Shown: piece after piece, positions 18,488 to 54,305 of the stretch
How positions within the stretch are numbered: the stretch's first letter is position 1
Layout of the letters: each line of letters begins with the position of its first letter
The notes under the pieces: model-generated
What the model was told of the DNA's origin: nothing
The model's input: only the letters and a program-made list of their open reading frames with translations
Databases searched by the model: none
Assembly: GCA_963676565.1 (NCBI GenBank)
Contig: OY781089.1
Span: 64,001-128,000, forward strand
DNA from: Halarcobacter sp.
GTDB taxonomy: Bacteria; Campylobacterota; Campylobacteria; Campylobacterales; Arcobacteraceae
Reading direction: 5' to 3'
DNA: 64,000 bases
Made by a program: the position numbers and the translations under genes

Positions 18488-18520
18488 AATACCTTGTGAG
18501 GAGATTCCTCACAAGGTATT
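18488..18520 (-). terminator. Intrinsic terminator of the fructose PTS operon
   Basis: Perfect 15-bp stem AATACCTTGTGAGGA-GAT-TCCTCACAAGGTATT at the fruA stop, T-tract on minus strand. Confidence 0.8.
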
Positions 18521-19913: not shown

Positions 19914-19936
19914 AATTTTCCCTTTATGTAAATTTT

Positions 19937-20881: not shown

Positions 20882-20886
20882 AACAG

Positions 20887-32776: not shown

Positions 32777-33154
32777 TTAACTTTCTATTTTCTTTAACTC
32801 TTCATACTCTTCATCTGTAAAAATTCTAGACCTTGTTAAAAATTGATATCCTTCATCAATCTCAAGTGAAAAAGAGTTACCAAAGGCACCTTTTTCCTCT
32901 TTCACATCAACAATTATTTGAGAGTGTCTAAAATATTCAAACTGTTCATGATCAATAAAAAACTCTACACCACAAATTTCACCAAGTTTTACATTTCTAC
33001 TTGGTACATAAAAGTCAGCTTTTTCATAACACATTGGAGATGTTCCATCACAACAACCACCACTTTGATTAAATACTAATTCCCCATTTTTTTCAATTAA
33101 CATCTCAATAACTTTTTGTGCTTCAGGTGTAGCTATTACTCTTCTAATATCCAT
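32777..33154 (-). CDS. DUF779-family protein (aldehyde dehydrogenase associated)
   Basis: QSGGCCDGTSPMC, FSLE, RSRIF; directly downstream of the ALDH. Confidence 0.88.
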   Translation of the reverse strand: MDIRRVIATPEAQKVIEMLIEKNGELVFNQSGGCCDGTSPMCYEKADFYVPSRNVKLGEICGVEFFIDHEQFEYFRHSQIIVDVKEEKGAFGNSFSLEIDEGYQFLTRSRIFTDEEYEELKKIES

Positions 33155-33326: not shown

Positions 33327-34820
33327 TTAAAAGAATCCTAAAGCATTTTTGCTGTAAGAAGTTAAGATATTTTTAGTATGTCTATAAGAGTTTAACATCA
33401 TCATGTGAGTTTCTCTACCGATACCAGATTTTTTGTATCCACCAAATGATGCATGTGATGGGTACATGTGGTAACAGTTAACCCAAACTCTACCAGCTTC
33501 AATTCCTCTAGAGAATTTATGTAATTGGTGCGCATCTCTTGACCATACACCTGAACCTAATCCGTAGATAGTATCATTTGCAATCTCTAATGCTTCATCT
33601 TCATCTTTAAATGTAGTTACTGCTAATACAGGTCCAAAAATCTCTTCTTGGAAGATTCTCATTTTATTGTGACCTTTGAAGATTGTTGGTTGAATATAGA
33701 ATCCATTTGGATTTACTTCAGACTCATAAGCATCTCCACCAATTAGACACTCAGCACCCTCTTCTTTACCAATTTTGATATATTCCATAATTTTTTCTTT
33801 TTGGTTAGAAGAACATTGAGCACCCATCATACACTCAGGATCTAATGGATTACCTAATTTAATAGCTGCAACTCTTTCAAGTACTCTTTCCATAAATGGC
33901 TCATAAATTGACTCTTGGATTAATGCTCTTGAAGGACAAGTACAAACCTCACCTGAGTTAAATGCGAATAATACAAGACCTTCAATTGCTTTATCGAAGA
34001 ACTCATCATCAGCATCCATAATTGACTCTAAGAAAATATTTGGAGATTTACCACCAAGTTCTAAAGTAGAAGGGATAATATTCTCAGTTGCATATTGCAT
34101 AATTAATTGACCAGTTGTAGTCTCACCTGTAAATCCTACTTTTTTAACATCTGGGTGAGTTGATAAGAATTTACCAATTTTTCCACCTGAACCATTAATA
34201 ATATTAACTGTACCAGCTGGTAATACTTCTTGAATAGCTTCCATCATTAATAAAATAGACATTGGAGTTGCACTCGCTGGTTTCATAACAACACAGTTAC
34301 CTGCTGCTAATGCAGGAGCTAATTTCCATGCAGCCATTAATAATGGGAAGTTCCATGGAATAATTTGAGCAACAACACCATATGGCTCATAAACCTCTTG
34401 AGAAATAGTATTTTCATCTAAATCAGCAACTGTACCAGCTTCTGATCTAATAACTGATGCAAAATATCTAAAATGATCAACAACTAAAGGAACGTCTGCT
34501 GCTAAAGTTTCTCTTACAGCTTTTCCGTTATCTAGTGTTTCTGCAACTGCTAAACTTTCTAATTTTGCTTCAATTGCATCAGCAACTTTATTTAACATAG
34601 TAGATCTTTCTACTACTGAAGTGTGTTTGTAAGATTCAAAAGCAGTTTTTGCAGCTTGAATTGCTAATTCAACATCTTCTTCATTTGATCTTGGAATTCT
34701 AGTTAATACTTCACCATCAACTGGAGAAATATTATCAAAATACTCACCACTTTTTGGAGCTACCCACTCTCCACCAATAAAGTTCTCATATTGAGGTTTA
34801 AATTCTGGTTTACTATACAT
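33327..34820 (-). CDS. aldB: NAD-dependent acetaldehyde dehydrogenase (AldB/ExaC type)
   Basis: IIPWNFP, FTGET, LELGGKSP, GEVCTC, EEIFGP; ATG at 34820 follows AAAGGA RBS, so the ORF track start is too early. Confidence 0.92.
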   Translation of the reverse strand: MYSKPEFKPQYENFIGGEWVAPKSGEYFDNISPVDGEVLTRIPRSNEEDVELAIQAAKTAFESYKHTSVVERSTMLNKVADAIEAKLESLAVAETLDNGKAVRETLAADVPLVVDHFRYFASVIRSEAGTVADLDENTISQEVYEPYGVVAQIIPWNFPLLMAAWKLAPALAAGNCVVMKPASATPMSILLMMEAIQEVLPAGTVNIINGSGGKIGKFLSTHPDVKKVGFTGETTTGQLIMQYATENIIPSTLELGGKSPNIFLESIMDADDEFFDKAIEGLVLFAFNSGEVCTCPSRALIQESIYEPFMERVLERVAAIKLGNPLDPECMMGAQCSSNQKEKIMEYIKIGKEEGAECLIGGDAYESEVNPNGFYIQPTIFKGHNKMRIFQEEIFGPVLAVTTFKDEDEALEIANDTIYGLGSGVWSRDAHQLHKFSRGIEAGRVWVNCYHMYPSHASFGGYKKSGIGRETHMMMLNSYRHTKNILTSYSKNALGFF

Positions 34821-34898
34821 ATCTTTTCCTTTATTTTTTAATTGAAAATAAATACTCAAAAGGTATCTATTTTTTGAATATTGAAATCTTACACGAGA

Positions 34899-34940
34899 AT
34901 TATAGCCTGAATTTAGCGATTGCGTAGCATTAACGTAGCA
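34899..34940 (-). promoter_or_regulatory. aldB promoter with four GCTA repeats at 11-bp period
   Basis: TAGC on + at 34903, 34914, 34925, 34936; TATAAT on - at 34904-34899. Confidence 0.65.
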
Positions 34941-35031
34941 ATTAGAAAAAAATGGTAACAATACCATGAAATAGGGCTTTTATCAATTGAAATTTTGTTA
35001 AAAAATTAAAAAATTATGCTACACTTTTTTT

Positions 35032-36924
35032 ATGAAAACATATAACTACACATTTTTCAATAACAACTTAACTGATTTAATTGATTATAGTATATTTAAA
35101 GATAAAGAAAATGTTCTAATTCAAATATTTTCTGGTCATGATTCAAGCACATTGGAGTTAATTACAAAAACAGTAATGGATAATATTCCACAGGCAGTAT
35201 GTTTAGGGACAACTACCGATGGAGAGATATGTGAATCAAAAATCTCTACACTTAAAACAATTATATCAATTTCAATTTTTGATAATACATATTTAAAAGC
35301 TTATTATATGAAAGGGGATGACGCATTTAATATAGGATATGAGATTGCACAAAAAGTTATCACCGATAATACAAAGTTAATAATCACTTTTACCGATGGA
35401 ACTGGGACAAATGCTGAAGAGTATTTGAAAGGTATAGAAAAATATGATAATTCTATAATGGTATGTGGTGGTATGGCAGGAGATAATGGAGTATTTAAAC
35501 AAACCTTTATCTCTTTAGGAAAGCAAATCTATCCTAAAGGGTATATAGCAGTTTCACTTAACTCAGATATATTAAAAGTAACAAACGCGAGAAAGTTTGA
35601 TTGGGTTCCAATAGGTTTAGAGCATACAATAGATGAAGTTGATGGAAATAGAATTTATAAAATCTCGGGGATGAGTCCTTCTGAGTTTTATAAAAAATAT
35701 TTAGGTGAGAGTGTTGCGCAAACAGAGTTTCCTTTAATAGTTGAAAGAAATGGGATACCAACAGCAAGAGCAGTACTTGAACAGCACAGAGATGGAAGTT
35801 TAAGTTGTGGAGGAAATTTAAGAAAAGGTGATATAGTTAGACTTGGTTTTGGGGATGCAGAATCTATAATGAATAATCCACTTAGTGCTTTAGATACAAG
35901 TTTTGATCATCCAATTGAAACTTTTTTCTTATATTCTTGTATGGCAAGAAGAAGGTATTTAAGAGAATTAATAAAACTTGAAACACAACCTTTTGCAGTT
36001 ATTGCTCCAACTTCTGGATTTTTTACTTATGCAGAGTTTTTCCATAGAGATGGTCATAATGAATTATTAAATCAAACATTAACAGTAGTAGCATTAAGTG
36101 AACATGATAAAAAAGTTAATGCATTGGAAATTTATCCAGAGAAGAAAACAAAATCAAAAAAAGATGCTGCCTTTGCAAGAACTTTAAGATCTCTTACTCA
36201 CTTAGTACAAAAAAGTACAGATGATTATCAAGACCAATCAAAAAGTTTAAAGGAATCAGAACTTTATGCACAAAACCTGCTAACGTCACAAAAACAATTT
36301 TTAAAACATGCAGTTCATGAAACAAATACACCACTTTCAATAATAATGGCAAACATTGAATTATATGAAATGGAAAATGGTAAAAATCAATACTTATCAA
36401 ATATTGAAGTAGCTATGAAAAATCTTTTTTCTATATATGATGATTTAAGTTATTTAGTAAAAAAAGATCAAATAGATTACCCTGAACATAAAATTGATTT
36501 TAAAGATTTTGTTAGAAGTAGAGTTGAGTTTTTTAACCAAGTTGCAACTAAAGTAAAATCAAAATTTGTTTTTAAAGCACCAAAAGAACCTATGGTTTTA
36601 CATTTTAATGAATCTAAACTACAAAGAATAATTGATAACAATCTTACAAATGCCATAAAATACACTTATGAAAATGAAGATATTTATGTAACATTAAAAA
36701 AAGAAGGAACTCACTTTAAACTTATGGTTTCAAGCCATTCAAAAAAAATCCAAGATCCAGACAAAATCTTTAAAGAATATTATAGAGAAGAGAAATCAAA
36801 AGATGGATTTGGATTGGGATTAAATTTAGTAAAAAGAATTTGTGATGAAGAGGGTGTTGAAATATATTTAGAATCTAACGAATATTTCACATCATTTGTT
36901 TATCTATTTAAAGGGGAAAGATGA
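35032..36924 (+). CDS. Soluble FIST-domain sensor histidine kinase
   Basis: GTTTDGEI, GGMAGD, YSCMARR, GFFTYAEF, NQT (FIST); HETNTPL H-box, NAIKY, GFGLGL; no obvious TM. Confidence 0.88.
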   Translation: MKTYNYTFFNNNLTDLIDYSIFKDKENVLIQIFSGHDSSTLELITKTVMDNIPQAVCLGTTTDGEICESKISTLKTIISISIFDNTYLKAYYMKGDDAFNIGYEIAQKVITDNTKLIITFTDGTGTNAEEYLKGIEKYDNSIMVCGGMAGDNGVFKQTFISLGKQIYPKGYIAVSLNSDILKVTNARKFDWVPIGLEHTIDEVDGNRIYKISGMSPSEFYKKYLGESVAQTEFPLIVERNGIPTARAVLEQHRDGSLSCGGNLRKGDIVRLGFGDAESIMNNPLSALDTSFDHPIETFFLYSCMARRRYLRELIKLETQPFAVIAPTSGFFTYAEFFHRDGHNELLNQTLTVVALSEHDKKVNALEIYPEKKTKSKKDAAFARTLRSLTHLVQKSTDDYQDQSKSLKESELYAQNLLTSQKQFLKHAVHETNTPLSIIMANIELYEMENGKNQYLSNIEVAMKNLFSIYDDLSYLVKKDQIDYPEHKIDFKDFVRSRVEFFNQVATKVKSKFVFKAPKEPMVLHFNESKLQRIIDNNLTNAIKYTYENEDIYVTLKKEGTHFKLMVSSHSKKIQDPDKIFKEYYREEKSKDGFGLGLNLVKRICDEEGVEIYLESNEYFTSFVYLFKGER

Positions 36925-37583
36925 AAATTTTATTATTAGAAGATGATATTATGCTAAATGAGGCAATAACTCAATATCTTAGAACAGTAGGTCACTCTGT
37001 TCAATCTGTAAAAGATGGAGATGAGTGTCTAAAAAAATTAGATGAAGAAAAATTTGACCTTCTTGTTTTTGATATTAATGTTCCAAGTATTGATGGCCTT
37101 ACTATTTTAGAAGATTTACATAAAAAGAAAAGAATGGTACCAACTATTTTTATTTCTGCACTTATAGATATTGAAGATATCTCAAGGGCCTTTGATATTG
37201 GATGTCATGATTATTTAAAAAAACCATTTCACTTAAAAGAATTAAATCTTAGAATTGAAAAAATTCTAAAAACAAGAACTGCACCAATGAACCATAAAAG
37301 ATTATCAAAATCATACAGTTTTGATAGTGAAAGTATGACATTATATTTTAACAACGAACCACACATCTTACCCAAAAGACAACTTCAAATTATAGAACTA
37401 CTTACAAATAATAGAAGTTTAGTTTGTAACTATGATATGTTTAGGGATTACGTTTGGAATGACGACTTTATTGATAATGCAACAATTAGAGCAGAGGTAA
37501 ATAGAGTTAAAAAAGTTTTAAAAGAGGATTTTATTGTAAATGTTAGAGGTATTGGTTATATGGTTGAAAGACCTAGTTCTTAA
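36921..37583 (+). CDS. OmpR-family response regulator
   Basis: LLEDD, FDINVP, KKPF receiver; VRGIGY winged-helix tail. Confidence 0.92.
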   Translation: MKILLLEDDIMLNEAITQYLRTVGHSVQSVKDGDECLKKLDEEKFDLLVFDINVPSIDGLTILEDLHKKKRMVPTIFISALIDIEDISRAFDIGCHDYLKKPFHLKELNLRIEKILKTRTAPMNHKRLSKSYSFDSESMTLYFNNEPHILPKRQLQIIELLTNNRSLVCNYDMFRDYVWNDDFIDNATIRAEVNRVKKVLKEDFIVNVRGIGYMVERPSS

Positions 37584-37592
37584 GTAATATAC

Positions 37593-38723
37593 TTAAGAAC
37601 AACAGGTTTGTTTTTCAATAAATTTTAAAGAGTTTTGTTTATTTCTATAAATAGGTTGACTATCACTTTTATTTGCATTCTCAACTATTTTTTTAACAAC
37701 TCCATGATAAGCTGATTTATCACAAACTGGATCTGCTTCATGCATATCTTGTGTTAATGCATATGCTTGGCATCTGCATCCACCAAAATCTTTCTCTTTT
37801 TCAGGACAAGATCTGCATGTTGGATTCATCCATTCATCACCTCTAAAAAAATTAAAAGCTTTTGATTCATACCAAATCTCTTTTACAGAAGACTCCTTTA
37901 CATTTGGAAAATCTATTGGTAAAGTATTTGCAGTATTACATGGAAGAGCTATTCCATCTGGATTAATTGTTAAAAAAGTTGTTCCCCATCCATTCATACA
38001 TGCCTTTGGTCTATTTTCATAATAATCAGGTACTACAAAAAATACTTTCATATCTTTTCTTTTTTCCCTATAAAAATTTGTTACTTCCATAGCCTTGTCA
38101 AGTTGTTCTTTACTTGGTAAAAGAGCATCAACATTTTCTAATGCCCACCCATAGTATTGAATATTTGCAATCTCTAAATAGTTTGCTCCAAGCTCATCAC
38201 AAAACTCAATTATCTCACCAACTTGCTCAATATTTTGTCTTGTGATACAAGTATTTATAATAAGTTGCATACCAAGTTCTTTTACCTCTTTTGCAAAGGC
38301 AATTTTATCTTTCATTGCTGATTTATTGTTTGTAATTAAAGTCATAGTATTTTCATCATGAGACTGAATACCTAATTGAACAGTTTTAAGTCCAGCTTCT
38401 TTTAACTTTTTTAAAACTCCCTTTTCACCACCTACACCAGAAGTGATTAAGTTTGTATAAAATTTTAAATCATTTGCATATCTTACTACATCAACAATAT
38501 CTTTATTTAGTAAAGGTTCACCACCTGAAATTCCTAATTGAACAGCCCCTAAAGCTCTAGTTTCATCTAAAACTTTAAACCAATCTTCTTTACTCATACC
38601 ATCTTTTGTATTTGCAAAATCTAATTGATTATAACAATAAGTACACTCTAAAGGGCATTTGTGAGTTAACTCTAAAAGTACCCACAAAGGTGGTTTAATC
38701 CCCGACTTTTCATTAGTTGACAT
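37593..38723 (-). CDS. pqqE: PqqA peptide cyclase, radical SAM/SPASM
   Basis: PLWVLLELTHKCPLECTYC, QYYGWA, CMNGWG, CRSC...DFGGCRCQA, DPVC. Confidence 0.96.
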   Translation of the reverse strand: MSTNEKSGIKPPLWVLLELTHKCPLECTYCYNQLDFANTKDGMSKEDWFKVLDETRALGAVQLGISGGEPLLNKDIVDVVRYANDLKFYTNLITSGVGGEKGVLKKLKEAGLKTVQLGIQSHDENTMTLITNNKSAMKDKIAFAKEVKELGMQLIINTCITRQNIEQVGEIIEFCDELGANYLEIANIQYYGWALENVDALLPSKEQLDKAMEVTNFYREKRKDMKVFFVVPDYYENRPKACMNGWGTTFLTINPDGIALPCNTANTLPIDFPNVKESSVKEIWYESKAFNFFRGDEWMNPTCRSCPEKEKDFGGCRCQAYALTQDMHEADPVCDKSAYHGVVKKIVENANKSDSQPIYRNKQNSLKFIEKQTCCS

Positions 38724-38982
38724 AATTTACCCACTTTCTATCAAAGGCTTCATCAAAAAATGCTTCCACATCTTTTTCTAATCCTGACATCTCAAACTTT
38801 TTTTCCAATGTTGAAACTATTTCATTAAAATTCTTAGTTCCATCACATTGGTTCATTATTTCACCAGCACTTTGATTTAGTTGAACCATACCTTCTGGGT
38901 ATAATAAAACAAAACAATCTTGTGCTTGCTCAAATTGTAATTGAAAGTGTTCATTCACTACAATTAATTTTTCTTTGTTCAT
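38713..38982 (-). CDS. pqqD: PqqA-binding chaperone
   Basis: [27 protein letters not shown]...CDG. Confidence 0.93.
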
Positions 38983-39709
38983 TTTCATAACCTTCAATAT
39001 TGAAATACGGTGGTCTTTTTAATTCGTATGCCAAATATAAAGCATCACACATAGTCCAAAGTATATCAAGTTTAAACTGTAAAATTTCAAAAGCTTTATT
39101 TTGAAGTTCAACTGTATTAAACTCTTCTAAAGTGATTGAAAGTCCATGTTGAACATCCCTTCTTGCTTCACTCAATCTTTTTTGGAAATATCTCAAACCT
39201 TTTGCTTCAATCCAAGGATAATTATCTGGCCATGTACTTAATCTTTGTTGGTGAATTTGAGGTGCAAACATCTCAGTTAAAGATGACATTGCAGCTTCTT
39301 TCCAAGGTCTTTGTTTTGCAAAGTTAATATAAGCATCTACTGCAAATTTAACTGATGGTAAAACATATTTATGAGAAATTAAATCCTCTTTATTTAATCC
39401 AACAGCTTCACCTAATTCAAGCCAAGCTTCAATTCCACCACCAACACTATCATGGTCAATAATTCTATCAATCCATTTTCTTCTATCTTCTAAAGGTGGG
39501 TTATTTGACATAATTGCTGCATCTTTAATTGGAATTGCTGTTTGATAATAAAATCTATTTGCTACCCAGCCTTGGATTTCCTCTTTTGTACAATCCCCTT
39601 GATACATTCTAATATGAAATGGATGGTGAATGTGATACATATCACCCATACCTCTTAACTTTGCTTCAAACTCTTCTTTACTTAGTAATTCACTCATTTT
39701 TTTTGTCAT
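38951..39709 (-). CDS. pqqC: Pyrroloquinoline-quinone synthase
   Basis: [39 protein letters not shown]. Confidence 0.96.
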
Positions 39710-39772
39710 TCTTCTTCTCCTTATTTAATGTCAAATTTTTTATTTTTTTATAAAAAGAAATAAATATATTCT

Positions 39773-40690
39773 TTATATATCTATTCTCATCCCATCATAA
39801 GAAACTTCAATCCCATGGGAAATAAGTTCTTTATATTCAGGATTTTCTTCATCTAAGATTGGATTTGTATTGTTAATATGAATTAATATTTTTCGTGGTT
39901 TTTCTAAAGTATCTAAAATTTTAATAAGCCCTTCTTCTCCACTTAAAGGGATATGCCCCATATCAGTGCCTAATTTAGTAGAAAACTTACCTTTTATCAT
40001 CTCATCATTTGTCCAAAGGGTTCCTTCTATTAAAAGAACATCTGCATTTCGCATCTCTTCAAAAACATGATCTTCCATAACCCCAAGACCAGGAAGATAA
40101 AACAATCTTTTTCCTGTATTTTTATTTACAACTGTAATTCCAATATTATCACCCTTTCTTGGATGATCTCTATGTGGTGAATATGGTGGTGCATTTGAAA
40201 TAAGTGCATGGGCATAAAACTCATATGAAGGCATCACTGGTATTTCAAATTTTGTAGTAGAATCTGGCAAGATTTCATGCCAAACAGTTCCTCCACCATC
40301 CCAATGTTGTAACATTTTCATAGTAGGAAATGATGAATTCAATTCTTCATTTACCTCTTTTGTACAATAAATTTGGTGAGGACAACCTTCCCTTAACATA
40401 AGTAAACCAGTTGTATGGTCTATTTGAGCATCGTTAAATACGATTGCTTTAATTTTAGTTTCTCTTTTTTTTGTTGGATGTAAAAAAGGTGAATTATGAA
40501 TTTGCTCTAAAATATCTGGGCTAGTATTAAGTAAAACCCAGTTCTCACCATCTTCACTAATAGTAATTGAACTTTGAGTTCTTTTTTTTATACTTTTTTT
40601 GCCTTCTCTGTAACCTTTACAATTGTCACAGTTACAATTAAATTGTGGTAAGCCACCACCTGCACCTGAACCTAGAACTTGAATCCTCAC
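39773..40690 (-). CDS. pqqB: PQQ biosynthesis protein PqqB
   Basis: LGSGAGGGLPQFNCNC, RTQSS, QIDHTTGLL, MGH, IHINNTNP; GTG at 40690 after AAAGGA. Confidence 0.95.
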   Translation of the reverse strand: MRIQVLGSGAGGGLPQFNCNCDNCKGYREGKKSIKKRTQSSITISEDGENWVLLNTSPDILEQIHNSPFLHPTKKRETKIKAIVFNDAQIDHTTGLLMLREGCPHQIYCTKEVNEELNSSFPTMKMLQHWDGGGTVWHEILPDSTTKFEIPVMPSYEFYAHALISNAPPYSPHRDHPRKGDNIGITVVNKNTGKRLFYLPGLGVMEDHVFEEMRNADVLLIEGTLWTNDEMIKGKFSTKLGTDMGHIPLSGEEGLIKILDTLEKPRKILIHINNTNPILDEENPEYKELISHGIEVSYDGMRIDI

Positions 40691-40751
40691 AATATATCCT
40701 TTCATTTTTCCTCAAAGAAAAAAATTCCCACATTTTTTTGTTTGAAGAAAA

Positions 40752-40773
40752 GACTAGAGCAAAAGCTCTAGTC
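40752..40773 (-). terminator. Hairpin between pqqA and pqqB
   Basis: GACTAGAGC-N4-GCTCTAGTC followed on minus strand by TTTTCTT. Confidence 0.75.
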
Positions 40774-40785
40774 AAGTTTAAAAAA

Positions 40786-40860
40786 TTACTTTGTACAAAT
40801 GTACATAGTAACTTCAAAACCAAATCTGTTATCTACGAATGTAGGTGTTTCCCATTTCAT
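40786..40860 (-). CDS. pqqA: PQQ precursor peptide, 24 aa (MKWETPTFVDNRFGFEVTMYICTK; not in ORF track)
   Basis: W-x-x-P...R-F-G-F-E-V-T-M-Y with ExxxY core; AAGGAGGT RBS; directly upstream of pqqB. Confidence 0.95.
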   Translation of the reverse strand: MKWETPTFVDNRFGFEVTMYICTK

Positions 40861-40896
40861 TTTAGTTACCTCCTTTTTTGATTTTCAGATTAACTA

Positions 40897-42678
40897 TTAT
40901 TTTTTAAATAATTTAAATACGTGAACAGTTCCACCTTGGTTTATATTCTTAATAAGTTTTGCAACTTCACCACCCCATAAAGGAACAGCTCCACCCCAAC
41001 CTGAAACGATTGCGATATATTGCTCACCATTTTGCTCCCAAGTAATAGGAGAAGAAACAATTCCAGAACCAGCATTGTATTTAAATAAAATCTCACCAGT
41101 TTCATCATCAAATGCTAAGAATTTACCTTCAGGAGTTCCTGTAAATACAAGTCCACCAGCAGTAGTTAAAACTCCACCCCATAGTGGTGCAGGGTTTTTA
41201 TATTCCCATTTAATTTTTCCTGTCATTGGCTCAATTGCTTTAAGTGAACCAATGTGATCTTCAAAGATTGGTTTAATTGTAAATCCAGCACCTAAGTAAG
41301 CAGCACCTTTTTTATAATGAATTGGTTGATTCCAAATATCCATTCCCCACTCATTTGAAGGAACATAGAATAATTCAGTCTTTTTAGAATAAGCCATTGG
41401 CATCCAGTTTTTACCACCTAAGAATGAAGGAACAGAGAATACTGATTTACCTTTTGAAGCATCACCAGGATTTCCAGGTCTTCCATCTGCTGTTAACATT
41501 GGTCTACCATTTTTATCAATTCCAGTTGCCCAAGTAATATTTGAAACAAATGGATTAGCAGTAACGAATTTACCATTAGTTCTATCTAATACATAGAAGA
41601 AACCATTTCTATCTGCAGTTGCAGCATATTTCTTACCATCTTTATTAAATGAAACTAACTCATTAACACCATCGAAATCCCATCCATCATGTGGAGTAGT
41701 TTGATAATGCCAAACAATTTTTCCTGTATCAGGATTAATTGCTAATCTTGAAGAAGAGTATAAGTTGTCTCCTGGTCTATTATGTGAGTTCCATGGTGCA
41801 GGGTTTCCTGTTCCAAAGAATAATAAATCAGTCTCAGAGTCATATGTACCACCAAGCCAAGTTGCAGCTCCACCAGTTTTCCATAAATCTCCAGGCCATG
41901 TTTTACCAGCTTCGCCACCAGTAATTCCATTTTCTTTTCCATTTAAGTAACCCATGTGACCTTCAACAGTTGGTCTAGTCCAAATTAGTTTACCAGTTTT
42001 AGCATCATAAGCTTCAACTTTACCAACAATACCAAACTCACCACCAGCTACACCAGTGATAATCATATCTTTAACAACTAATGGAGCAGCAGTAATAGAG
42101 TAACCATCTTTATATTCCGCTACTTTTTTCTTCCATACTGTTTTTCCAGTTTTTCTGTTTAATGCCACTAATTTAGCATCTAGTGTTCCAAAAACTACTA
42201 AATCACCATAAATTGCAGCACCTCTGTTGATTACATCACAACATGGTAAGATTCCACTTGGAAGTCTTGCATCATATTGCCATAACTCTTCACCAGTTGC
42301 TAAATCAATTGCATACATTCTAGAATAAGATGCAGTTACATACATAACACCATCTTTTACTAATGGTTGAGATTCTTGACCTCTTTGTTTTTCACCACCA
42401 AATGAGAAATTCCATACAGAAACTAAATCTTTAACAGTCTCTTTATTCACCTGAGTCAGTGGTGAAAATCTTTGACCATTTTGTCCATGTCCATATGTTA
42501 AAACATCCCCAGTTGTTTTATCATCATTTAAAATCTCATCATATGTTACAGATGTATATGATGGCTTTGTAACCGCTGATTTACTATCAGACATTGCAGT
42601 GTTGCTAGTCGCACATCCACTAATTAATGCAGAAAGCGTAACAGCTACTGCACTAGTTAGTAAAAAACTCTTTTTCAT
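40897..42678 (-). CDS. pedH: PQQ-dependent alcohol dehydrogenase, lanthanide-type (PedH/ExaF-like), predicted lipoprotein
   Basis: Vicinal C146-C147 (PCCDVINRG), E214 (GGEFG), N292 (GNP), D334-F-D336 ([11 protein letters not shown]), [12 protein letters not shown]; lipobox ISGC22. Confidence 0.9.
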
Positions 42679-42723
42679 GCTATCTCCTTTTATAATTGTC
42701 AGACTGAAAATTGTCTTAAGAGA

Positions 42724-42755
42724 AGTATATATGAGAAAAGTAGCAACAGTTTAGC
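42724..42755 (-). promoter_or_regulatory. pedH promoter with GCTA box
   Basis: GCTA-AACTGTT-GCTA-CTTTTCTCATA-TATACT on minus strand. Confidence 0.75.
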
Positions 42756-43533
42756 TATTGTTAACTTTTTTTGATTTAAACCCTAAAAATGCCATAATTA
42801 AAGTTATAATAAGAGATATTACTAGTACTAGAAGTGCCTGTGTATCGACCTTTAGGTATAGTGAGAACCTAATAGATTCTACAATATAAGTAAAAGGATT
42901 ATATGAAGAAATTTCATATAAAAGTATAGACGAATCTTTAATTTTCCAAAGTGGGTATAAAGCGGAACTTAAAAAGAACATTGGGAAGATAACAAAGTTC
43001 ATTACAGTTGCAAAATTTTCTAATTGTTTTATAACAGAAGAGATAAAAAGTGCAAAGGCATTAAGAATTATAGATGAAATTATAATTATAGGAATAGTTA
43101 CCACTATTGCCAAATATGAAATATCTACCCCATACAATTTAGCAATAAGTAAAAAAGTGATTGCTTGAATTGTTGATACTATTGAAGTTGCAAACATTTT
43201 ACAAAATAGTAAGAAATTTCTATTTATATAAGAAGATAAAAGTATTTTCATACTACCCATCTCCCTATCAAATATCATTGTTAAACTACTTTGCATACCA
43301 TTAAAAAGTAATACCATCCCAACAAGTCCTGGAACAATATAGGTTTCATAGGTGATATAAGTTTCATATGGAGGAGTAATAGCAAGTCCTAAAGCAGTTT
43401 TAAAACCAACTGAAAAGATAAATAGCCAAAGTAAAGGTCTAACAAGAGCTGAAAAAAATCTACTTTTTTGTTTAACGAATCTAATTAATTCTTTGTAGAT
43501 AATACCTTTCATACAATTAAAATATATATTCAT
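42751..43533 (-). CDS. ABC-2 type permease of the PQQ-ADH-associated transporter (PedC-like)
   Basis: SALVRPLLWLF, PPYETYITYETYIVPGL, LFNGMQSSL, DREMGSM, SSALYPLW. Confidence 0.85.
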   Translation of the reverse strand: MNIYFNCMKGIIYKELIRFVKQKSRFFSALVRPLLWLFIFSVGFKTALGLAITPPYETYITYETYIVPGLVGMVLLFNGMQSSLTMIFDREMGSMKILLSSYINRNFLLFCKMFATSIVSTIQAITFLLIAKLYGVDISYLAIVVTIPIIIISSIILNAFALFISSVIKQLENFATVMNFVIFPMFFLSSALYPLWKIKDSSILLYEISSYNPFTYIVESIRFSLYLKVDTQALLVLVISLIITLIMAFLGFKSKKVNNS

Positions 43534-43535
43534 GG

Positions 43536-44258
43536 CTATTTTACAATTTGATTGAAAGTATCAACCAAATTCTCCTTTTCATATTTTTCCATAATAGCAC
43601 TCACAATACCCGTTTCTACTATTTTACCATCTTTAATAAATGAAATTTCATCATCTTCATTTACCTCATCGAAAAGATGAGTAATCCAAAGAACACTTAG
43701 GTTTTCCCTTTTTACTAAATCTCTAACATAATCTAAGATATCAAATCTACTTTTTAAATCAAGTCCAACAGTAGGTTCATCAAGTAAAAGTAGTTTTGGT
43801 TTATTAATTAGAGCCCTTAAAATTTCAACTCTTCTTCTATGTCCTCCATTTAGTTTTCTAGCTGTAGTATCTAAATGTGGTTTTAATTCAAGTCTTTCAA
43901 TCTCATTTTCAATTGATTTTATTGTTTGTACAAAACCTAAGCCCTTTAATGAACCATAATAATAAAGATTTTGTCTAACAGTTAAATCTAAATCTAAAGT
44001 TGGTTCTTGAAAAACAATACCAATATTTTTTAAAGCTTCACTATAGTTTTTTATGGAGTGATTATTTATATTGATTTCACCAACTTCAAGTTTAAGAAGT
44101 CTTGTAATAAGTGAAAAAATAGTTGATTTTCCAGCTCCATTTAGTCCCAATAAAACTGAAAACTCACCTTTTTTTATATTAAAAGAAACCTTATCTAATA
44201 CCTGTTTCTTTCCATAGGAAAAATCTACCTCTTTTAATTCTAATATTTTTTCACTCAT
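43536..44258 (-). CDS. ABC ATPase of the PQQ-ADH-associated transporter (PedB-like)
   Basis: GLNGAGKST, TLDLDLTV, LNGGHRRRVEI, LDEPTVGLD. Confidence 0.85.
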   Translation of the reverse strand: MSEKILELKEVDFSYGKKQVLDKVSFNIKKGEFSVLLGLNGAGKSTIFSLITRLLKLEVGEININNHSIKNYSEALKNIGIVFQEPTLDLDLTVRQNLYYYGSLKGLGFVQTIKSIENEIERLELKPHLDTTARKLNGGHRRRVEILRALINKPKLLLLDEPTVGLDLKSRFDILDYVRDLVKRENLSVLWITHLFDEVNEDDEISFIKDGKIVETGIVSAIMEKYEKENLVDTFNQIVK

Positions 44259-44270
44259 TTTACAACTTTA

Positions 44271-45242
44271 CTATTTACTAGGAATTACTGCTAATCCCCA
44301 AGGATATCTTCCTACTTTTATTGTTTTTTCTACTTTTAAAGAATCAACATCTATTACAGATACATCACCACTTACACCATTTGTAGTATAAAGTTTTTTC
44401 TCATTCTGGGCAAAAGCTAATTGCCAAACTCTTTTTCCAACTAATAAATACTTTATAACTTTATATGTTTTTGCATCAATTACAGCAACATGGTTAGCTG
44501 GTCCTAAAGCTACAAAGGCATATTTTCCATCGCTTGTTAGTTTAATACCAACTGGCTGAATTAAATCTTTAAAAATCCCAGGAATTTTAAAACCTAATTT
44601 TGCAACACTCTCTTTTGTTTTAGTGTCAACTACCACAACAGTCCCACCAATCTCACTTGATGCCCAAACTTTATCACCATTTTTTGAAAATTCTATATGT
44701 CTTGGTCTTGCATCCACTAAAGTATTATGAACAATCTCTTTTGTTTTTGTATCAATCCAATGTAAAAAGTTAGAAGTTTCTGATGTATTAATAGCCATAC
44801 TTCCATCAGGACTTACAGCCATCCCCTCAGGTTCTAAACCAACTTCAATTTGAGATACTACAGTTCTATTTGGAATATCTACAACAGTTACAATTCCATC
44901 ATTCTCATTTGATATATAAAGCTCTTTCCCATCTGGATGTAATGCAAACTGCTCTGGGTCCTCACCTGATGGTAAATTATATAAGATTTCCCCTGTTTTA
45001 GTATCCATAGCTTGAACTGTATCATCATCACTTGCACAAATATATAATTTTTTATAATCACTTGTAAGCAGTATTCCTCTAGGTCTTTGCCCTACTTCAT
45101 ATGTTTTTATAACTTTATTTGTATCTGAATCAATAACACTAATAGTATTGTCTTTCTCATTTGATACAAATATTGTATCTGCACTTAAGATTGATGCAGC
45201 CAATACTGATAAAATAGATGTAAAAATTAATTTCTTCATCAC
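44271..45242 (-). CDS. Periplasmic YVTN beta-propeller protein of PQQ catabolism clusters (PedA2-like)
   Basis: VSNEKDNT, GQRPRGI, ASDDD, SGEDPE, SSEIGG, ALGPANHVAV, GRYPWG. Confidence 0.85.
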   Translation of the reverse strand: MMKKLIFTSILSVLAASILSADTIFVSNEKDNTISVIDSDTNKVIKTYEVGQRPRGILLTSDYKKLYICASDDDTVQAMDTKTGEILYNLPSGEDPEQFALHPDGKELYISNENDGIVTVVDIPNRTVVSQIEVGLEPEGMAVSPDGSMAINTSETSNFLHWIDTKTKEIVHNTLVDARPRHIEFSKNGDKVWASSEIGGTVVVVDTKTKESVAKLGFKIPGIFKDLIQPVGIKLTSDGKYAFVALGPANHVAVIDAKTYKVIKYLLVGKRVWQLAFAQNEKKLYTTNGVSGDVSVIDVDSLKVEKTIKVGRYPWGLAVIPSK

Positions 45243-45263
45243 TAATTCCCTTTTAATAAAAAT

Positions 45264-45683
45264 TTATTCAACAATAAAAGTTGCTCTTTCTCTATCACTT
45301 TTAGCTGATGGTAAACCTAAAGTAAAAGTTCCTGGTTTAATAGGTATAAAAGTCATTTCAATTTCACCTTCATCATCAAACTCAAACCCATCTAAACCTA
45401 GTGGTCTTACTTCAATACCGTTAATAGATATTTGATTTACCCAAATATTTCTAAAAAAAGCTGCACCTACTATAGGTATTTCTCTAGAACCATCACTTTT
45501 TAAAACAAGTTCGTAATATTTACCCGATTCTAATTTATATGGTTCACTTGCAAGTGGTTGACCCACACTAATAGTAATAGGATTTAATTTAGTTTTAGAG
45601 TGTAATAAACCCTTCAAATTTTTAGCCGTTGCAAATTCTCCTGTTAAAAGTAGCATAGCTATTAATAATACAATTTTCTTCAT
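45264..45683 (-). CDS. Exported small beta-sandwich protein (possibly cupredoxin-like), function unknown
   Basis: Signal peptide; FFRNIW...IEVRPLG...EFDDEG...FIPIKPG; no Cys. Confidence 0.6.
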   Translation of the reverse strand: MKKIVLLIAMLLLTGEFATAKNLKGLLHSKTKLNPITISVGQPLASEPYKLESGKYYELVLKSDGSREIPIVGAAFFRNIWVNQISINGIEVRPLGLDGFEFDDEGEIEMTFIPIKPGTFTLGLPSAKSDRERATFIVE

Positions 45684-45711
45684 GCATAATCCTTTTTGTA
45701 ATTTATCTTTA

Positions 45712-45798
45712 ATTGTAATGAAGCTTTATAGCTATAATATAGCGTATTGATTTTTGTTATCATATTGCTAGACTGAGGCTATACATTTTATATATACT
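45712..45798. promoter_or_regulatory. Back-to-back promoters, each with a GCTA box
   Basis: Minus: GCTA-TATTATA-GCTA-TAAAGCTTCAT-TACAAT (45743-45712); plus: GCTA-GACTGAG-GCTA-TACATTTTATA-TATACT (45767-45798). Confidence 0.75.
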
Positions 45799-45825
45799 TT
45801 TACAAAATATATTTTAAGGATAGAA

Positions 45826-46977
45826 ATGAAACGATTATTTAGTCTATTTTTAATGTTAGGGTTTATAAATGCCTTTGCACTAGAAGTAAATATTTTATAT
45901 CTAGAACAAAAAATAAAAAAGCCTCCAGTACTTTCAAATATAATTGAAGACCCAGAAGATTTAGGATTAAAGGGGGCTCAAAAAGCTATAATAGACTCAA
46001 ATAAAAGTGCTAGATTTTTAAATCAAAAATACAATCTAATTGAAAAAATCTCTTATGATAAAGCTCAATTAAAAAAAGATTTTGAAGAATTTATAAATGC
46101 AGGTAACTCATATGTGGTATTAAATGTAGAAGATGATTTTTTAAAAGTGTTACTAAATGACCCACTTTCAAAAAAAGCTTTAATGGTAAATGCATCTAGT
46201 CCAACTACAAGTTTAAGACAAAACTACTGTTTACCAAACTTACTTCATACAGCTCCTTCAAATGCCATGCTTTATGATGGCTTAGTTCAATTTTTAGTAA
46301 AAAGAGATTTTAAAGATATCTTTTTAATAAGTGGAGAAAATCCAAAAGATAAAGAGATACTAAAAGATATAAAAAGGTCAGTAAAAAAATTTAATGCAAA
46401 AATTATAAAAGAAAAAGTTTGGGATAATAATTCAGATATTAGAAGAAAAGCAAATGCAGAATTTCCTGTATTTACACAAGCTAGTGATTATGATTTAATT
46501 ATGTTAGCTGACCATTATGGAGATTTTGGGGAGTTTATGTATTTTAATACTTGGCTTCCTAGACCAATAGCCGGAACTCAGGGATTAACTCCAACAGCTT
46601 GGCATAAAGTTATTGAAGCTTGGGGAGCAGCTCAAATGCAAAGTAGATTTGAAAAGTTTGCAAAAAGATGGATGCAATCAAAGGATTACACAAACTGGAC
46701 AGCAGTTAGATCTATCATTGGTGCAATCACAAAAACAAATTCTGCTGATTTAAAAACAAACCTTGATTTTATTCACTCTGATAAGTTTGATTTAGCAGCA
46801 TATATGGGAAGAAAATTATCATTTAGAGATTATAATGGACAGCTTAGAATGCCAATTTCACTTGTTCAACCTAGGGCACTTATTTCAGTTTCTCCACAAG
46901 TTGGCTTTTTACATCCTAAAACTGATTTAGATACTTTGGGTATTGCACCCTTTGAGATGAAGTGTAAAAATGATTAA
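45826..46977 (+). CDS. ABC substrate-binding protein of PQQ-ADH systems (PedA1-like)
   Basis: Signal peptide; NLLHTAPS, PRPIAGTQGL, EAWGAAQMQSRF, GQLRMP, SPQVGFLHP..DLDTLG...C. Confidence 0.82.
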   Translation: MKRLFSLFLMLGFINAFALEVNILYLEQKIKKPPVLSNIIEDPEDLGLKGAQKAIIDSNKSARFLNQKYNLIEKISYDKAQLKKDFEEFINAGNSYVVLNVEDDFLKVLLNDPLSKKALMVNASSPTTSLRQNYCLPNLLHTAPSNAMLYDGLVQFLVKRDFKDIFLISGENPKDKEILKDIKRSVKKFNAKIIKEKVWDNNSDIRRKANAEFPVFTQASDYDLIMLADHYGDFGEFMYFNTWLPRPIAGTQGLTPTAWHKVIEAWGAAQMQSRFEKFAKRWMQSKDYTNWTAVRSIIGAITKTNSADLKTNLDFIHSDKFDLAAYMGRKLSFRDYNGQLRMPISLVQPRALISVSPQVGFLHPKTDLDTLGIAPFEMKCKND

Positions 46978-47425
46978 ATCTTTTCTTGCACTTTTAGTTC
47001 TTAGCCTAAGTATAAATGCCTATGAGGTAACAGATAAAGATAATTACTTTACTGTAAAAATTCAAGATGAAAAATTTCATGAACTATATGTGAATTTAAA
47101 AGATGAAATAAATTTTAATTCATATGTTATAGTTCATGAATTAAATTTAGCAAAGTCTACTAAGGCTGTTGCTGATGCTCTAGAGGAAAAAGTTGTTGTA
47201 AAAAATGGAATAAATTTATTGATTTGTAAAACCTCATTTACCCTTAAAATGCATCAAGAAAATATTCACAATATGACTTTTTGTCCAATGGTTATCTCTA
47301 TATACGAAGATGAAACCTCAAACTATATATCTTTTAGGAAATATCACCCTCTAAATAACAATGATAAAATAGCACTTACTATAAATAAAAGACTAAAAAC
47401 ATTAATTTTAAACTCCCTTGATTAA
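46970..47425 (+). CDS. Exported DUF302-like protein
   Basis: Signal peptide; LICK and FCPMVISIYE. Confidence 0.6.
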   Translation: MIKSFLALLVLSLSINAYEVTDKDNYFTVKIQDEKFHELYVNLKDEINFNSYVIVHELNLAKSTKAVADALEEKVVVKNGINLLICKTSFTLKMHQENIHNMTFCPMVISIYEDETSNYISFRKYHPLNNNDKIALTINKRLKTLILNSLD

Positions 47426-47509
47426 AAACTTTCACCTTAATTAAAATTTTTTTTAAATTGCTATTTAAATATATAATAATATAATGATATTATCTATAGG
47501 GAGAGAATT

Positions 47510-49636
47510 ATGAAAAATAATATAATAATACTATTGATAATTATTTGTTTCTCGATATTTTTTTTTCTAACTTTAGATATAAATAAAAATGAATTAATAA
47601 ATACAGAAAAAAAAGATGATAACTCCAAGATTGAATTAAAACTTGCCCATAATCTACCAAAAAATAGTGCTTTACATGAAGCATCTGTTTTATATGCAAA
47701 AAAAATAGCTGAACTTACAAAAAATAGAGTGGAAATTAAAATATTCCCTGAACAAAAATTAGGAAATGACTATCAAATGATAGAGCTGGCAAGTCAAGGA
47801 AAAATTGATATTATAATAACTCCTACTGCAAAAATGAGTGTATCAGTTCCCTCAATGCAATATGCAGACTTACCATTTTTATTTCCAACAAGAGAGGATG
47901 CCTATGAACTTTTAGATGGAGAAGTTGGGAAAATGATTCTAAAAGATTTAGATAAAATTGATCTTTTAGGTATTGGTTTTTGGGAGAATGGCTTTAAACA
48001 TTTTACTGCGAACTCTAAATTAACTAGTCCGACAGATTTCAAAGGCAAAAAGATTAGAGTTATGAAAAGTAGAATAATAATGGAGCAATTTAAAGCTTTA
48101 GGGGCACAAGCTATACCTATTGATTTTCATTCTACTAAAAAAGCTTTAGAAGATAAAGTTGTTGATGGACAGGAAAACCCTTTAGTTGCAATTGTAAATA
48201 TGCAATTTCATAAAGTTCAATCAAATTTAACTATAAGCGAACATGCATATTTACCATATTTATTTTCCATGAGTAAAAAAAGCTTACGAAAACTTCCTGT
48301 AGAGATTCAAGATATTTTAACTAATAATTTAGATGAGATTACAAAATGGGAAAGAAAAGAAACCCAAATAAGAGAAAAAGAGTTCCTAGAAACAATAAAA
48401 AATGAAGGTGTAAAAATACACTATTTAACAAAAGAAGAGAAAGAAGCCTTTAGAGAAAAAACTAAATATATTGTAAAAATGTATGAAAGAGTGATTGGTT
48501 CAAATATAATTTCTAAAACTGAAGAGATATTAAATAAAAAATATGCAAATAAAGATAATATATATTTTGGTTTAGATGTAAATCTTTCAATTGGAAATAA
48601 AGACTCAGGCTTATCTTTAAAAAGAGGCGTTGAATTGGCAATTGAAGAGATTAATTCAAATGGTGGATTATTAGGTAAAAAAATCAACCTTCTTACAAAA
48701 GATAATGAAGCTATTACAACTAAGGCTTTGAAAAATTTTAAAGAGTTCTCAAAAAATGACAATGTAAAAGTTGTAATAGGTGGGAAAAGAAGTTCTATAA
48801 TTTCAAAAGAACTAGAAGATATCCAAAAAAGTAAAAAACCTTATTTTTCACCTTGGGCATCTGCAGATAAAATTGTTAATAATGGTTATGAAGAAAACTA
48901 TATTTTTAGAGTTTCTACAAATAATAAATTTATTATAAATAGACTTTTAAAAGAGTCTTTAAAAGATGATAAAAAGCCCTTAATCGTTGTCGAAAACTCT
49001 ATTTGGGGAAGAGGAGCCCTAGAACTTATAAAACAAGACAATAAAGAGTTAGAATCTATTATTATAAACCAAGGTCAAACTAATTTTGATAATTTAATAT
49101 CTAAAATAAAACAACATAAAACAAAATCAATCTTAATGGTTTTAAATACTTTAGAAGCATCAAATATCTTAAAGACTTTGTATGAAAACCAAATAAAGAT
49201 ATCAATATCTTCACATTGGGGTATTTTAGGTGGAAAGTTTTATGAACAAAATAAAGAATACCTAAGTAATATCGATTTGAAATTTATTCAATCTTTTAGC
49301 TTTATAAAAAATAAATCAAAGAAAGCAGAAGAGTTTGCTTTAAGATATATCAAAAAATATGGTGAGAAATCTACTTATGATATAGTTTCTCCTTCCTCTG
49401 TTGCTCAAGCATATGATTCTACTATGATAATTGCACAAGCAATAAAAGATGCCAACTCCTTTGAGGGAGAAAAAATAAAAAATGCCCTAGAAAATTTAAA
49501 AGAATATAATGGTTTGATAAAAAAATATATAAAACCATTTAGTAAAACTGACCACGAAGCTTTAGAGAAAAAAGACTTTTTCTTTGCAAAATATGATCAA
49601 AAAGGAAGAGTTATTCCAATTGGTGAAATAAAGTAA
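47510..49636 (+). CDS. Membrane-anchored fusion of TRAP DctP-type and LivJ-type solute-binding domains
   Basis: N-terminal TM; DLPFLF, WENGFK, KIRVM, DGQENP (DctP); GVELAIEEINSNGGLLGK, AQAYD (periplasmic binding protein type 1). Confidence 0.82.
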   Translation: MKNNIIILLIIICFSIFFFLTLDINKNELINTEKKDDNSKIELKLAHNLPKNSALHEASVLYAKKIAELTKNRVEIKIFPEQKLGNDYQMIELASQGKIDIIITPTAKMSVSVPSMQYADLPFLFPTREDAYELLDGEVGKMILKDLDKIDLLGIGFWENGFKHFTANSKLTSPTDFKGKKIRVMKSRIIMEQFKALGAQAIPIDFHSTKKALEDKVVDGQENPLVAIVNMQFHKVQSNLTISEHAYLPYLFSMSKKSLRKLPVEIQDILTNNLDEITKWERKETQIREKEFLETIKNEGVKIHYLTKEEKEAFREKTKYIVKMYERVIGSNIISKTEEILNKKYANKDNIYFGLDVNLSIGNKDSGLSLKRGVELAIEEINSNGGLLGKKINLLTKDNEAITTKALKNFKEFSKNDNVKVVIGGKRSSIISKELEDIQKSKKPYFSPWASADKIVNNGYEENYIFRVSTNNKFIINRLLKESLKDDKKPLIVVENSIWGRGALELIKQDNKELESIIINQGQTNFDNLISKIKQHKTKSILMVLNTLEASNILKTLYENQIKISISSHWGILGGKFYEQNKEYLSNIDLKFIQSFSFIKNKSKKAEEFALRYIKKYGEKSTYDIVSPSSVAQAYDSTMIIAQAIKDANSFEGEKIKNALENLKEYNGLIKKYIKPFSKTDHEALEKKDFFFAKYDQKGRVIPIGEIK

Positions 49637-51357: not shown

Positions 51358-51752
51358 TATTTCCCAAACTCTTTGTAAGTTTTATCTTCAAAAATTATAA
51401 ATACTGTTTTAGGGTTTTTATCGTTTTCATAAGCTGGAAGAGATAATCCAATTGCATTTTTAGGTTTTTCCTTCAAAAAGTCTTTTATAGCACGTGAGGG
51501 AACATTCCCTTCAAAAACATAATCTCCCATTAGTGAAGTATTACAAGATTGAATATCATAAGGAATTCCTATTTGTCTTTTTAAATTTTTTACATTCATA
51601 ACTGTAACAACATCAACCTCTTTTGCTACTTTTTCCATCTCTATAAACCAAGATTTAGGGCAAGTGCTTGTTGGTGGTTGAAAAACTTGTAGTTTAGATT
51701 CACTGGCAAAAAGTGAAATTGCCAACAAACAAAAAGCTAAAATTTTCATCAT
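51354..51752 (-). CDS. Exported DUF411/CopG-like protein with altered metal ligands
   Basis: PTSTCPKSW, GIP...QSCNT, YVFEGNVP, GLSLP follow the DUF411 pattern. Confidence 0.6.
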   Translation of the reverse strand: MMKILAFCLLAISLFASESKLQVFQPPTSTCPKSWFIEMEKVAKEVDVVTVMNVKNLKRQIGIPYDIQSCNTSLMGDYVFEGNVPSRAIKDFLKEKPKNAIGLSLPAYENDKNPKTVFIIFEDKTYKEFGKY

Positions 51753-52447: not shown

Positions 52448-52448
52448 T

Positions 52449-53183: not shown

Positions 53184-53201
53184 TTTTTCCTAATTTTTAT
53201 T

Positions 53202-54272: not shown

Positions 54273-54305
54273 TCCAACATGCAAAAATTTCGCAAAAGGA
54301 TATAC

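Follow-up and report, generated by a model that had tools for sequence, protein, structure and literature searches.

The lanthanide-dependent enzymes characterised to date come from methylotrophs and from Pseudomonas, and the locus described here raises the question of whether a member of the Campylobacterota also oxidises alcohols with a rare-earth enzyme. The DNA that we analysed, hereafter the window, comprises 64,000 nucleotides of contig OY781089.1 from Halarcobacter sp. (assembly GCA_963676565.1, positions 64,001 to 128,000 of the forward strand). At 40897-42678, on the minus strand, it contains an open frame with an ATG start, which encodes a 593-amino-acid (aa) pyrroloquinoline quinone (PQQ)-dependent alcohol dehydrogenase (PQQ-ADH) that resembles PedH of Pseudomonas putida KT2440 (PP_2679) and displays the lanthanide aspartate signature. 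The best explanation of the whole, to which we assign a probability of about 0.8 from the sequence comparisons, would be a lanthanide-dependent alcohol oxidation module of the PedH/ExaF type, acquired once in the Arcobacteraceae.

The protein belongs to the PQQ methanol/ethanol dehydrogenase family, with its eight-bladed propeller. TIGR03075 (PQQ-dependent dehydrogenase, methanol/ethanol family) matches residues 41-563 far beyond chance (784.4 bits, cut-off 480, E = 5e-236), and the Pfam PQQ family PF01011 matches with E = 3.8e-71. Among all PDB sequences, the best matches are the PedH entries 6ZCW (895 bits) and 6ZCV (891 bits), over residues 44-592, while ExaA of Pseudomonas aeruginosa (1FLG) comes second with 675 bits and type II quinohaemoproteins follow. 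The 6ZCW entry is P. putida KT2440 PedH with Pr3+, and its metal ligands are Glu199, Asn281, Asp323 and Asp325, as given in the account of PedH in PMC11845868. In the PDB alignment, which includes two 2-residue gaps, these four residues map exactly onto E214, N292, D334 and D336 of the window protein, and C146-C147 is aligned with the vicinal Cys pair of both 6ZCW and 1FLG. The metal-site stretch reads WDFDG in the window protein and in 6ZCW and 6ZCV, whereas it reads WDFSG in 1FLG and in all 22 of the S-type relatives that we extracted. The extra Asp thus stands where ExaA and PedE have Ser or Thr, and it coordinates the lanthanide, as described in PMC11845868 and PMC5487730. The original prediction, made from the letters alone, had named C146, C147, E214, N292, D334, F335 and D336, with the DFD codons at 41679-41671; a script check located all of them exactly there, the surrounding 11-residue motif occupying 41691-41659. 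Its further claims, that the additional Asp separates PedH from the WDFSG-containing ExaA and that the neighbouring sequence closely follows PedH, agree with the aligned motifs and with the difference between 895 and 675 bits, respectively.

The calcium enzymes, ExaA of P. aeruginosa and PedE of P. putida, have the fold, the family, the PQQ chemistry and the cytochrome c-550 type of partner in common with the window enzyme. They differ from it by a Ser at the D336 position, by several insertions (620-632 aa in the S-type rows, against 593 aa), by an identity of about 51% and by their place in a separate clade. On the other hand, the window protein is 65-75% identical to known proteobacterial PedH proteins; at a single Pseudomonas juntendi locus, it is 65.5% identical to the PedH-like protein and 51.0% identical to the PedE-like one. 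The PedH of P. putida itself lies in the same subclade and has the same four metal ligands, the same vicinal Cys pair and a similar length. ExaF of Methylorubrum extorquens AM1 is likewise an Asp-type lanthanide ethanol dehydrogenase, and its Methylobacteriaceae orthologues are 68-70% identical to the window protein; however, it falls in a separate alphaproteobacterial subclade, and in M. extorquens it coexists with XoxF and MxaF. Taken together, the Asp signature, the scores and the placement in the Asp clade indicate that the gene product is a PedH/ExaF-type enzyme. Its lanthanide dependence is well founded on homology, and the metal specificity is predicted from sequence only.

Our phylogenetic analyses revealed that this assignment holds at the level of the whole protein. 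The sequences were drawn from 80 named loci, 52 Arcobacteraceae genome regions and the paralogues of Methylorubrum rhodinum and P. juntendi; 150 BLAST hits, together with the added M. rhodinum paralogues, gave 146 distinct sequences, which were thinned at 90% identity to 80 rows. In a quick tree of these 80 rows, the window protein lies within a monophyletic Arcobacteraceae Asp-type clade of 25 rows (SH-aLRT 100), which joins the Pseudomonadaceae and Alteromonadaceae Asp-type proteins (97), and the Ser-type (calcium) clade stands apart. A careful tree (IQ-TREE) covers 44 of the 80 rows, with support given as ultrafast bootstrap (UFBoot)/SH-aLRT. There, the Arcobacteraceae Asp clade receives 100/100, its union with six gammaproteobacterial Asp-type rows, including the PedH-like protein of P. 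juntendi, receives 99/97, the Ser clade receives 100/99, and all Asp-type rows together receive 79/93. The protein therefore groups with the gammaproteobacterial PedH proteins and not with the calcium-type clade, as the original prediction had anticipated. In both trees, the Ser-type proteins of the Arcobacteraceae form their own clade beside Pseudomonas PedE, indicating that the family acquired both enzyme types.

The same data bear on whether the enzyme could chiefly be a methanol dehydrogenase with a XoxF-like role, in which case the host would be a cryptic methylotroph. According to PMC11845868, ExaF of M. extorquens accepts methanol as a substrate and can sustain growth on it. However, the XoxF structures 4MAE, 6OC5 and 6DAM match the window protein with 357-361 bits, against 895 for PedH, and the tree puts the protein among the ethanol-type enzymes, well away from the outgroup of M. 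rhodinum paralogues. Moreover, the neighbouring dehydrogenase gene encodes an ExaC-like acetaldehyde dehydrogenase and not a formaldehyde-oxidation module. We rejected the methylotrophic reading on the PDB scores and the tree, and consider it very improbable.

Given that the nearest relatives outside the family are gammaproteobacterial, and that the overall GC content of pedH (35.6%) exceeds the genome mean (28.4%), the locus might be foreign DNA, introduced by contamination, by chimeric assembly or by a very recent transfer. The genome, however, is a single contig of 3,340,668 bases, 99.97% complete with 1.12% contamination, and the GC content at third codon positions is host-like in pedH (15.7%, against 15.1% in rho and 14.6% in both dnaX and pyk). 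The housekeeping genes dnaX, rho, plsX, fabH and pyk flank the cluster within the window, and the Rho protein encoded there is 92% identical to that of a Poseidonibacter metagenome-assembled genome and 91% to that of Arcobacter sp. YIC-310, compared with 73-78% for other Campylobacterota and at most 64% for other phyla. The gene also belongs to a family-wide clade with full support, and it occurs in 10 of 22 genera with a conserved gene order. On these grounds we set the foreign origin aside and give it hardly any credence. The assumptions of the original prediction, that the host is a member of the Campylobacterota and that the contig is not chimeric, are thus secured by the Rho identities, the kinship assignment to the Arcobacteraceae, the single complete contig, the host-like codon composition and the conserved synteny. 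Furthermore, the absence of a calcium-type paralog, initially noted for the window, extends to the entire genome: TIGR03075 has one match in the 3,340,668 bases, so that this PQQ-ADH is the only one and has no calcium-type backup.

Such enzymes are widespread in the family. TIGR03075 matches above its cut-off in 55 of 184 Arcobacteraceae species genomes, and none of 377 genomes from 13 other Campylobacterota families in our phylum sample matches at E ≤ 1e-50. The Asp type (W-D-[FY]-D-G) is present in 51 genomes, in 48 of them, including that of the window, at full length; the remaining genes are partial (G142), a fragment (G171) and frameshifted (G167). The Ser type (WDFSG) is found in nine genomes, of which five have this type only and four carry both types in tandem in one cluster (G170, G168, G155 and G156, corresponding to the loci L130-L133, with further calcium-type loci at L125-L129); the four are included in both counts. 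Two genomes (G023 and G141) contain short fragments that were left untyped, and a weak match in G117 (E = 1.8e-4) was regarded as spurious. The combination seen in the window, a full-length Asp-type gene with no Ser-type gene, is shared by 44 genomes, including its own and counting G142, G171 and G167 apart. PQQ-ADH is therefore a common accessory trait of the Arcobacteraceae and not a singular oddity, and the family holds lanthanide-only, calcium-only and dual genotypes. Named database records suggest that the cluster is present in Arcobacter roscoffensis, as a PedH-only relative, and that Malaciobacter pacificus has the dual genotype. The pqqC gene is present in 57 of the 184 genomes, all 57 of which also have a PQQ-ADH match, showing that PQQ synthesis and the dehydrogenase travel together. 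Two details were noted at these loci. An open reading frame (ORF) of 231-233 aa lies behind the calcium-type gene in L003, L131 and L132, with a 230-aa counterpart in L130. The Asp-type gene at L228 (G167:C15:400300-402600) falls into two frames, of 359 aa and 261 aa, which reflects either a pseudogene or a sequencing error.

The genes beside pedH suggest how the metal may be supplied. Upstream on the minus strand lie a pedC-like ATP-binding cassette (ABC) permease (42751-43533; TIGR03861, 346.3 bits, cut-off 241), a pedB-like ABC ATPase (43536-44258; TIGR03864, 289.8 bits, slightly below the cut-off of 302) and a pedA2-like YVTN beta-propeller protein (44271-45242; TIGR03866, 503.7 bits, cut-off 287). 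A pedA1-like periplasmic substrate-binding protein is transcribed divergently (45826-46977, plus strand; TIGR03863, 416.5 bits, cut-off 413.6), and it is followed on the same strand by an exported 151-aa protein (46970-47425; weak DUF302 match, E = 0.024) that is conserved beside pedA1 in the Arcobacteraceae. This set constitutes a PedA1A2BC/Lut-type ABC importer, which by analogy would transport lanthanides. Previous work showed that P. putida needs pedA1A2BC for PedH-dependent growth at nanomolar La (PMC6839425), and that the lut ABC genes are needed for the La-dependent growth of M. extorquens (PMC7391723).

Between pedA1 and pedA2, on the minus strand, the cluster encodes an exported 139-aa protein (45264-45683), which was assigned to a cupredoxin-like fold and to the LutC position from its model, alignment and synteny. 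It represents a family of at least 491 proteins that lacks a Pfam domain, a few of whose records are named cupredoxin or copper-binding. In a Foldseek search, the model (predicted local distance difference test score, pLDDT, 83.7) resembles multicopper oxidases and nitrite reductases in their cupredoxin domains (TMq 0.49-0.58). We considered a copper protein and rejected it: the fold is cupredoxin-like, yet no His, Cys or Met is invariant, or nearly so, in an alignment of 32 sequences, so that copper binding is unlikely. The invariant residues of that alignment include acidic ones, among them E101, D103 and E105 in the EFDDEG motif. The lut-like cluster of M. rhodinum is collinear with the window, with a binding protein, a beta-propeller, a small exported protein, an ATPase and a permease, which are respectively 38% (pedA1), 58% (pedA2, in the lutB position), 44% (139-aa protein), 45% (pedB) and 52% (pedC) identical to their counterparts here. 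The M. rhodinum homologue of the 139-aa protein is encoded between the pedA2-like and pedB-like genes, which would be the lutC position; these lut names follow gene order only, as indicated by the locus-tag numbers in PMC7391723. A lutC mutant has a small La-dependent growth defect, as reported in the same article. One hypothesis is that the 139-aa protein handles metal in the periplasm. The setting differs from that of lutA-F in M. extorquens, in that the window showed neither a TonB-dependent receptor (lutH) nor a gene for lanmodulin.

The cofactor can be accounted for on the other side of pedH, where pqqA-E lie directly downstream on the same strand. The pqqA gene (40786-40860) encodes a 24-aa precursor peptide containing EVTMY, whose E-x-x-x-Y pair we take to be the PqqA signature; it is too short for ORF lists or profiles, and was read from the sequence. 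It is followed by pqqB (39773-40705; TIGR02108, 376.3 bits, cut-off 245), pqqC (38951-39709; TIGR02111, 332.4 bits, cut-off 240), pqqD (38713-38997; NF002535, 106.9 bits, cut-off 101) and pqqE, of the radical SAM/SPASM type (37593-38723; TIGR02109, 467 bits, cut-off 381). A consensus scan located a terminator-like hairpin of nine pairs, with GC pairs among them, and a T run immediately behind pqqA and ahead of pqqB (40752-40773, minus strand). This hairpin may attenuate read-through and raise the pqqA transcript above that of pqqB-E, an idea that comes from other organisms. A promoter scan of 37000-48000 returned 52 sites, against 59.5 expected.

Beyond pqqE, a sensor histidine kinase (35032-36924) and an OmpR-type response regulator (36921-37583) are encoded on the plus strand. 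These two genes keep their place next to the cluster and would form a candidate regulator. They are followed on the minus strand by an ExaC-like NAD aldehyde dehydrogenase (33327-34967; NF050026, 837.3 bits, below the 900-bit cut-off); as the profile match spans residues 52-546, the listed ATG probably lies upstream of the true start. A DUF779 protein (32777-33154, minus strand; PF05610, E = 2e-36) is encoded behind the aldehyde dehydrogenase, in the window as well as at related loci. The order that recurs among the 10 Arcobacteraceae loci compared is a divergent pedA1, then pedA2-B-C-pedH-pqqB-E, the regulator pair and finally aldehyde dehydrogenase-DUF779.

The expected electron acceptor is encoded in a second block on the plus strand, 11.6 kb from pedH. 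The core cluster contains no cytochrome c gene, and the sole CxxCH-containing ORF of the window is pedF, which encodes a cytochrome c-550 (54279-54725; TIGR04494, 184.6 bits, cut-off 122). Compared with the cytochromes whose genes stand next to pedH in the Alteromonadaceae and in Pseudomonas, PedF shows 48-51% identity, and it is their only strong match in the genome (tblastn). The next gene, in the PedG position, encodes a periplasmic solute-binding protein (54730-55599), which stays below the TIGR03871 threshold (26.8 bits, cut-off 212); behind it are encoded a quinoprotein-dehydrogenase-associated SoxYZ-like carrier (55614-56357; TIGR04557, 154.8 bits, cut-off 140) and a quinoprotein relay system zinc metallohydrolase 1 (56354-57259; TIGR04558, 359.9 bits, cut-off 300). 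Judging from these assignments, the window holds a full ped-type system for periplasmic alcohol oxidation, arranged in two blocks.

The interval between the two blocks also contains other genes. An exported 708-aa protein, in which a DctP-type tripartite ATP-independent periplasmic (TRAP) solute-binding domain is fused to a type-1 periplasmic binding domain, is encoded ahead of a 573-aa histidine kinase (47510-51357, plus strand); together they could be a sensor of pathway substrates or products. The region 51354-54161, on the minus strand, encodes a DUF411 protein, an ABC ATPase, a permease and a weakly matching SsuA-like binding protein. A DUF411 gene is also present near the ped cluster in L002, L004, L022 and L027, where it follows an ATPase-like ORF that is 26-32% identical to pedB. 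Far from these genes, the window contains a fructose-type phosphotransferase system (PTS) set (18519-23334, minus strand), consisting of an 815-aa EIIA-HPr-EI fusion, a PfkB-family kinase and an EIIB-EIIC protein; to our knowledge, sugar PTS systems are uncommon in the Campylobacterota.

The N-terminus of the window protein presents a feature that sets it apart from its proteobacterial relatives. It reads ALISGC, with LISGC as the lipobox of a predicted lipoprotein signal, and continues with a stretch rich in Ser, Thr and Asn. Searched with a loose regular expression, and not with a dedicated predictor, a lipobox is found in 27 of the 48 distinct Asp-type sequences from the Arcobacteraceae; it is found in one of the 27 gammaproteobacterial and in none of the 31 alphaproteobacterial Asp-type sequences, the other 26 and all 31 lacking a match. 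The remaining Arcobacteraceae copies read ALISAQA at this point, an ordinary signal-peptidase site. These patterns suggest that PedH is probably anchored to lipid in part of the Arcobacteraceae, as a lineage-specific lipoprotein form.

Several observations weigh against our interpretation. The Asp signature predicts the use of a lanthanide and does not prove a strict dependence on it. Monophyly of all Asp-type rows is supported at just 79/93 in the careful tree, and one interim quick tree placed the Ser clade inside an Asp grade; the trees thus settle the placement of the window protein, while the deep order of the two types varies between them. Three components, pedB, the ExaC-like dehydrogenase and, above all, the protein in the PedG position, score below their curated cut-offs, and the lipobox call depends on the permissive pattern mentioned above. 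The genome yielded no isocitrate lyase at E ≤ 1e-20 and nothing above the AcsA cut-off; malate synthase G and two copies of the acetate kinase AckA are present. Growth on ethanol as the sole carbon source is therefore uncertain, and a role of the alcohol as a respiratory electron donor is the safer claim.

A rival reading concerns the metal. The enzyme might work adequately with calcium, or with either metal, in which case the Asp would be a historical signature and the oxidation would not depend on rare earths. Dissolved rare earths are scarce in seawater, and no outer-membrane lanthanide receptor, uptake system or chelator pathway was identified here, no systematic search having been made. 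In addition, PedH seems able to coordinate Ca when grown without rare earths, according to PMC11845868. However, purified P. putida PedH is active with La, Ce, Pr, Nd and Sm and weakly with Gd and Tb, but inactive under the Ca conditions used for PedE, as reported in PMC5487730. Moreover, all 51 typed Arcobacteraceae Asp-type proteins keep W-D-[FY]-D-G, while the separate calcium-type clade keeps WDFSG; the constancy of both motifs suggests that the Asp and Ser states are maintained separately. A Ped/Lut-type importer is also conserved beside pedH. We therefore regard a calcium-driven enzyme as unlikely, and retain the lanthanide-dependent module as the best account of the locus.

From the data presented above on sequence, family assignment, genomic context, phylogeny and distribution, we infer a scheme for the metal specificity, substrates, lipid anchoring, electron path and transfer direction. 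The enzyme would most likely need a light lanthanide (La to Nd) instead of calcium. It would be exported to the periplasm and, in this lineage, probably tethered to a membrane as a lipoprotein. There, it would oxidise ethanol and other volatile alcohols to aldehydes and pass the electrons to the cytochrome c-550 PedF, and thence to the respiratory chain, while the aldehyde would be converted to the acid by the cytoplasmic ExaC-like dehydrogenase. The adjacent pqqABCDE genes would supply the cofactor, and the adjacent ABC system, composed of pedA1, pedA2, the LutC-like protein, pedB and pedC, would handle the metal as the counterpart of the P. putida and M. extorquens importers. The module was probably gained once by an ancestor within the Arcobacteraceae from a gammaproteobacterium-like donor, and would have acquired the composition of its host since.

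The closest known counterpart is the PedH system of P. putida, with which the window has pedF, pedA1A2BC, the SoxYZ-like carrier, the relay hydrolase and the aldehyde dehydrogenase in common, despite the host belonging to another phylum. The two differ in their organisation: pqqABCDE lie directly downstream of pedH here, and the pedF block is remote instead of being adjacent to pedH. The regulator beside the window cluster is of the OmpR type, whereas PedR2 is of the LuxR type. Given that the window genome has no PedE partner, no metal switch is possible, unlike in P. putida.

We also consider a broader and more tentative picture, for which we would give somewhat less than even odds: about a quarter of Arcobacteraceae species, among them the host of the window, might perform strictly rare-earth-dependent alcohol oxidation, using a lipid-anchored PedH without calcium backup and a self-contained PQQ and Lut/Ped-importer module, in which a copper-less, acid-rich cupredoxin-fold protein may be a periplasmic lanthanide carrier. 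If this were true, the oxidation of alcohols would be governed by trace rare earths in a phylum without described lanthanide or PQQ biology. The lanthanide-only, calcium-only and dual genotypes would then provide a natural comparative system for asking why bacteria keep one or both enzymes.

To conclude, our work describes a PedH-type gene, genuine and intact, which a marine member of the Campylobacterota carries together with a complete supporting module. The chemistry is known, and the phylum is apparently without an earlier description of it. The original prediction knew of no characterised lanthanide or PQQ metabolism in this phylum, which fits our literature searches: among the texts covered, a PQQ-ADH or lanthanide use attributed to the Arcobacteraceae was not found, although the tables of the survey by Huang et al. 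2019 (ISME J) may list Epsilonproteobacteria. A review citing that survey describes ExaF/PedH genes as broadly distributed (PMC11845868), and a metatranscriptome of oil exposure ascribed PQQ dehydrogenases to Colwellia and placed Arcobacter among the taxa with aldB transcripts (PMC7284936). If a working PedH system were shown in the Arcobacteraceae, rare-earth biology would reach the Campylobacterota, which inhabit marine settings, sediments and oxic-sulfidic interfaces, and volatile alcohols would be indicated as electron donors there. Further subjects of interest in the family are the lipoprotein form of the dehydrogenase and the cupredoxin-fold protein, as yet uncharacterised, that accompanies the importer. 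Finally, members of this family may fail to use alcohols in standard media only because a rare earth is not supplied.

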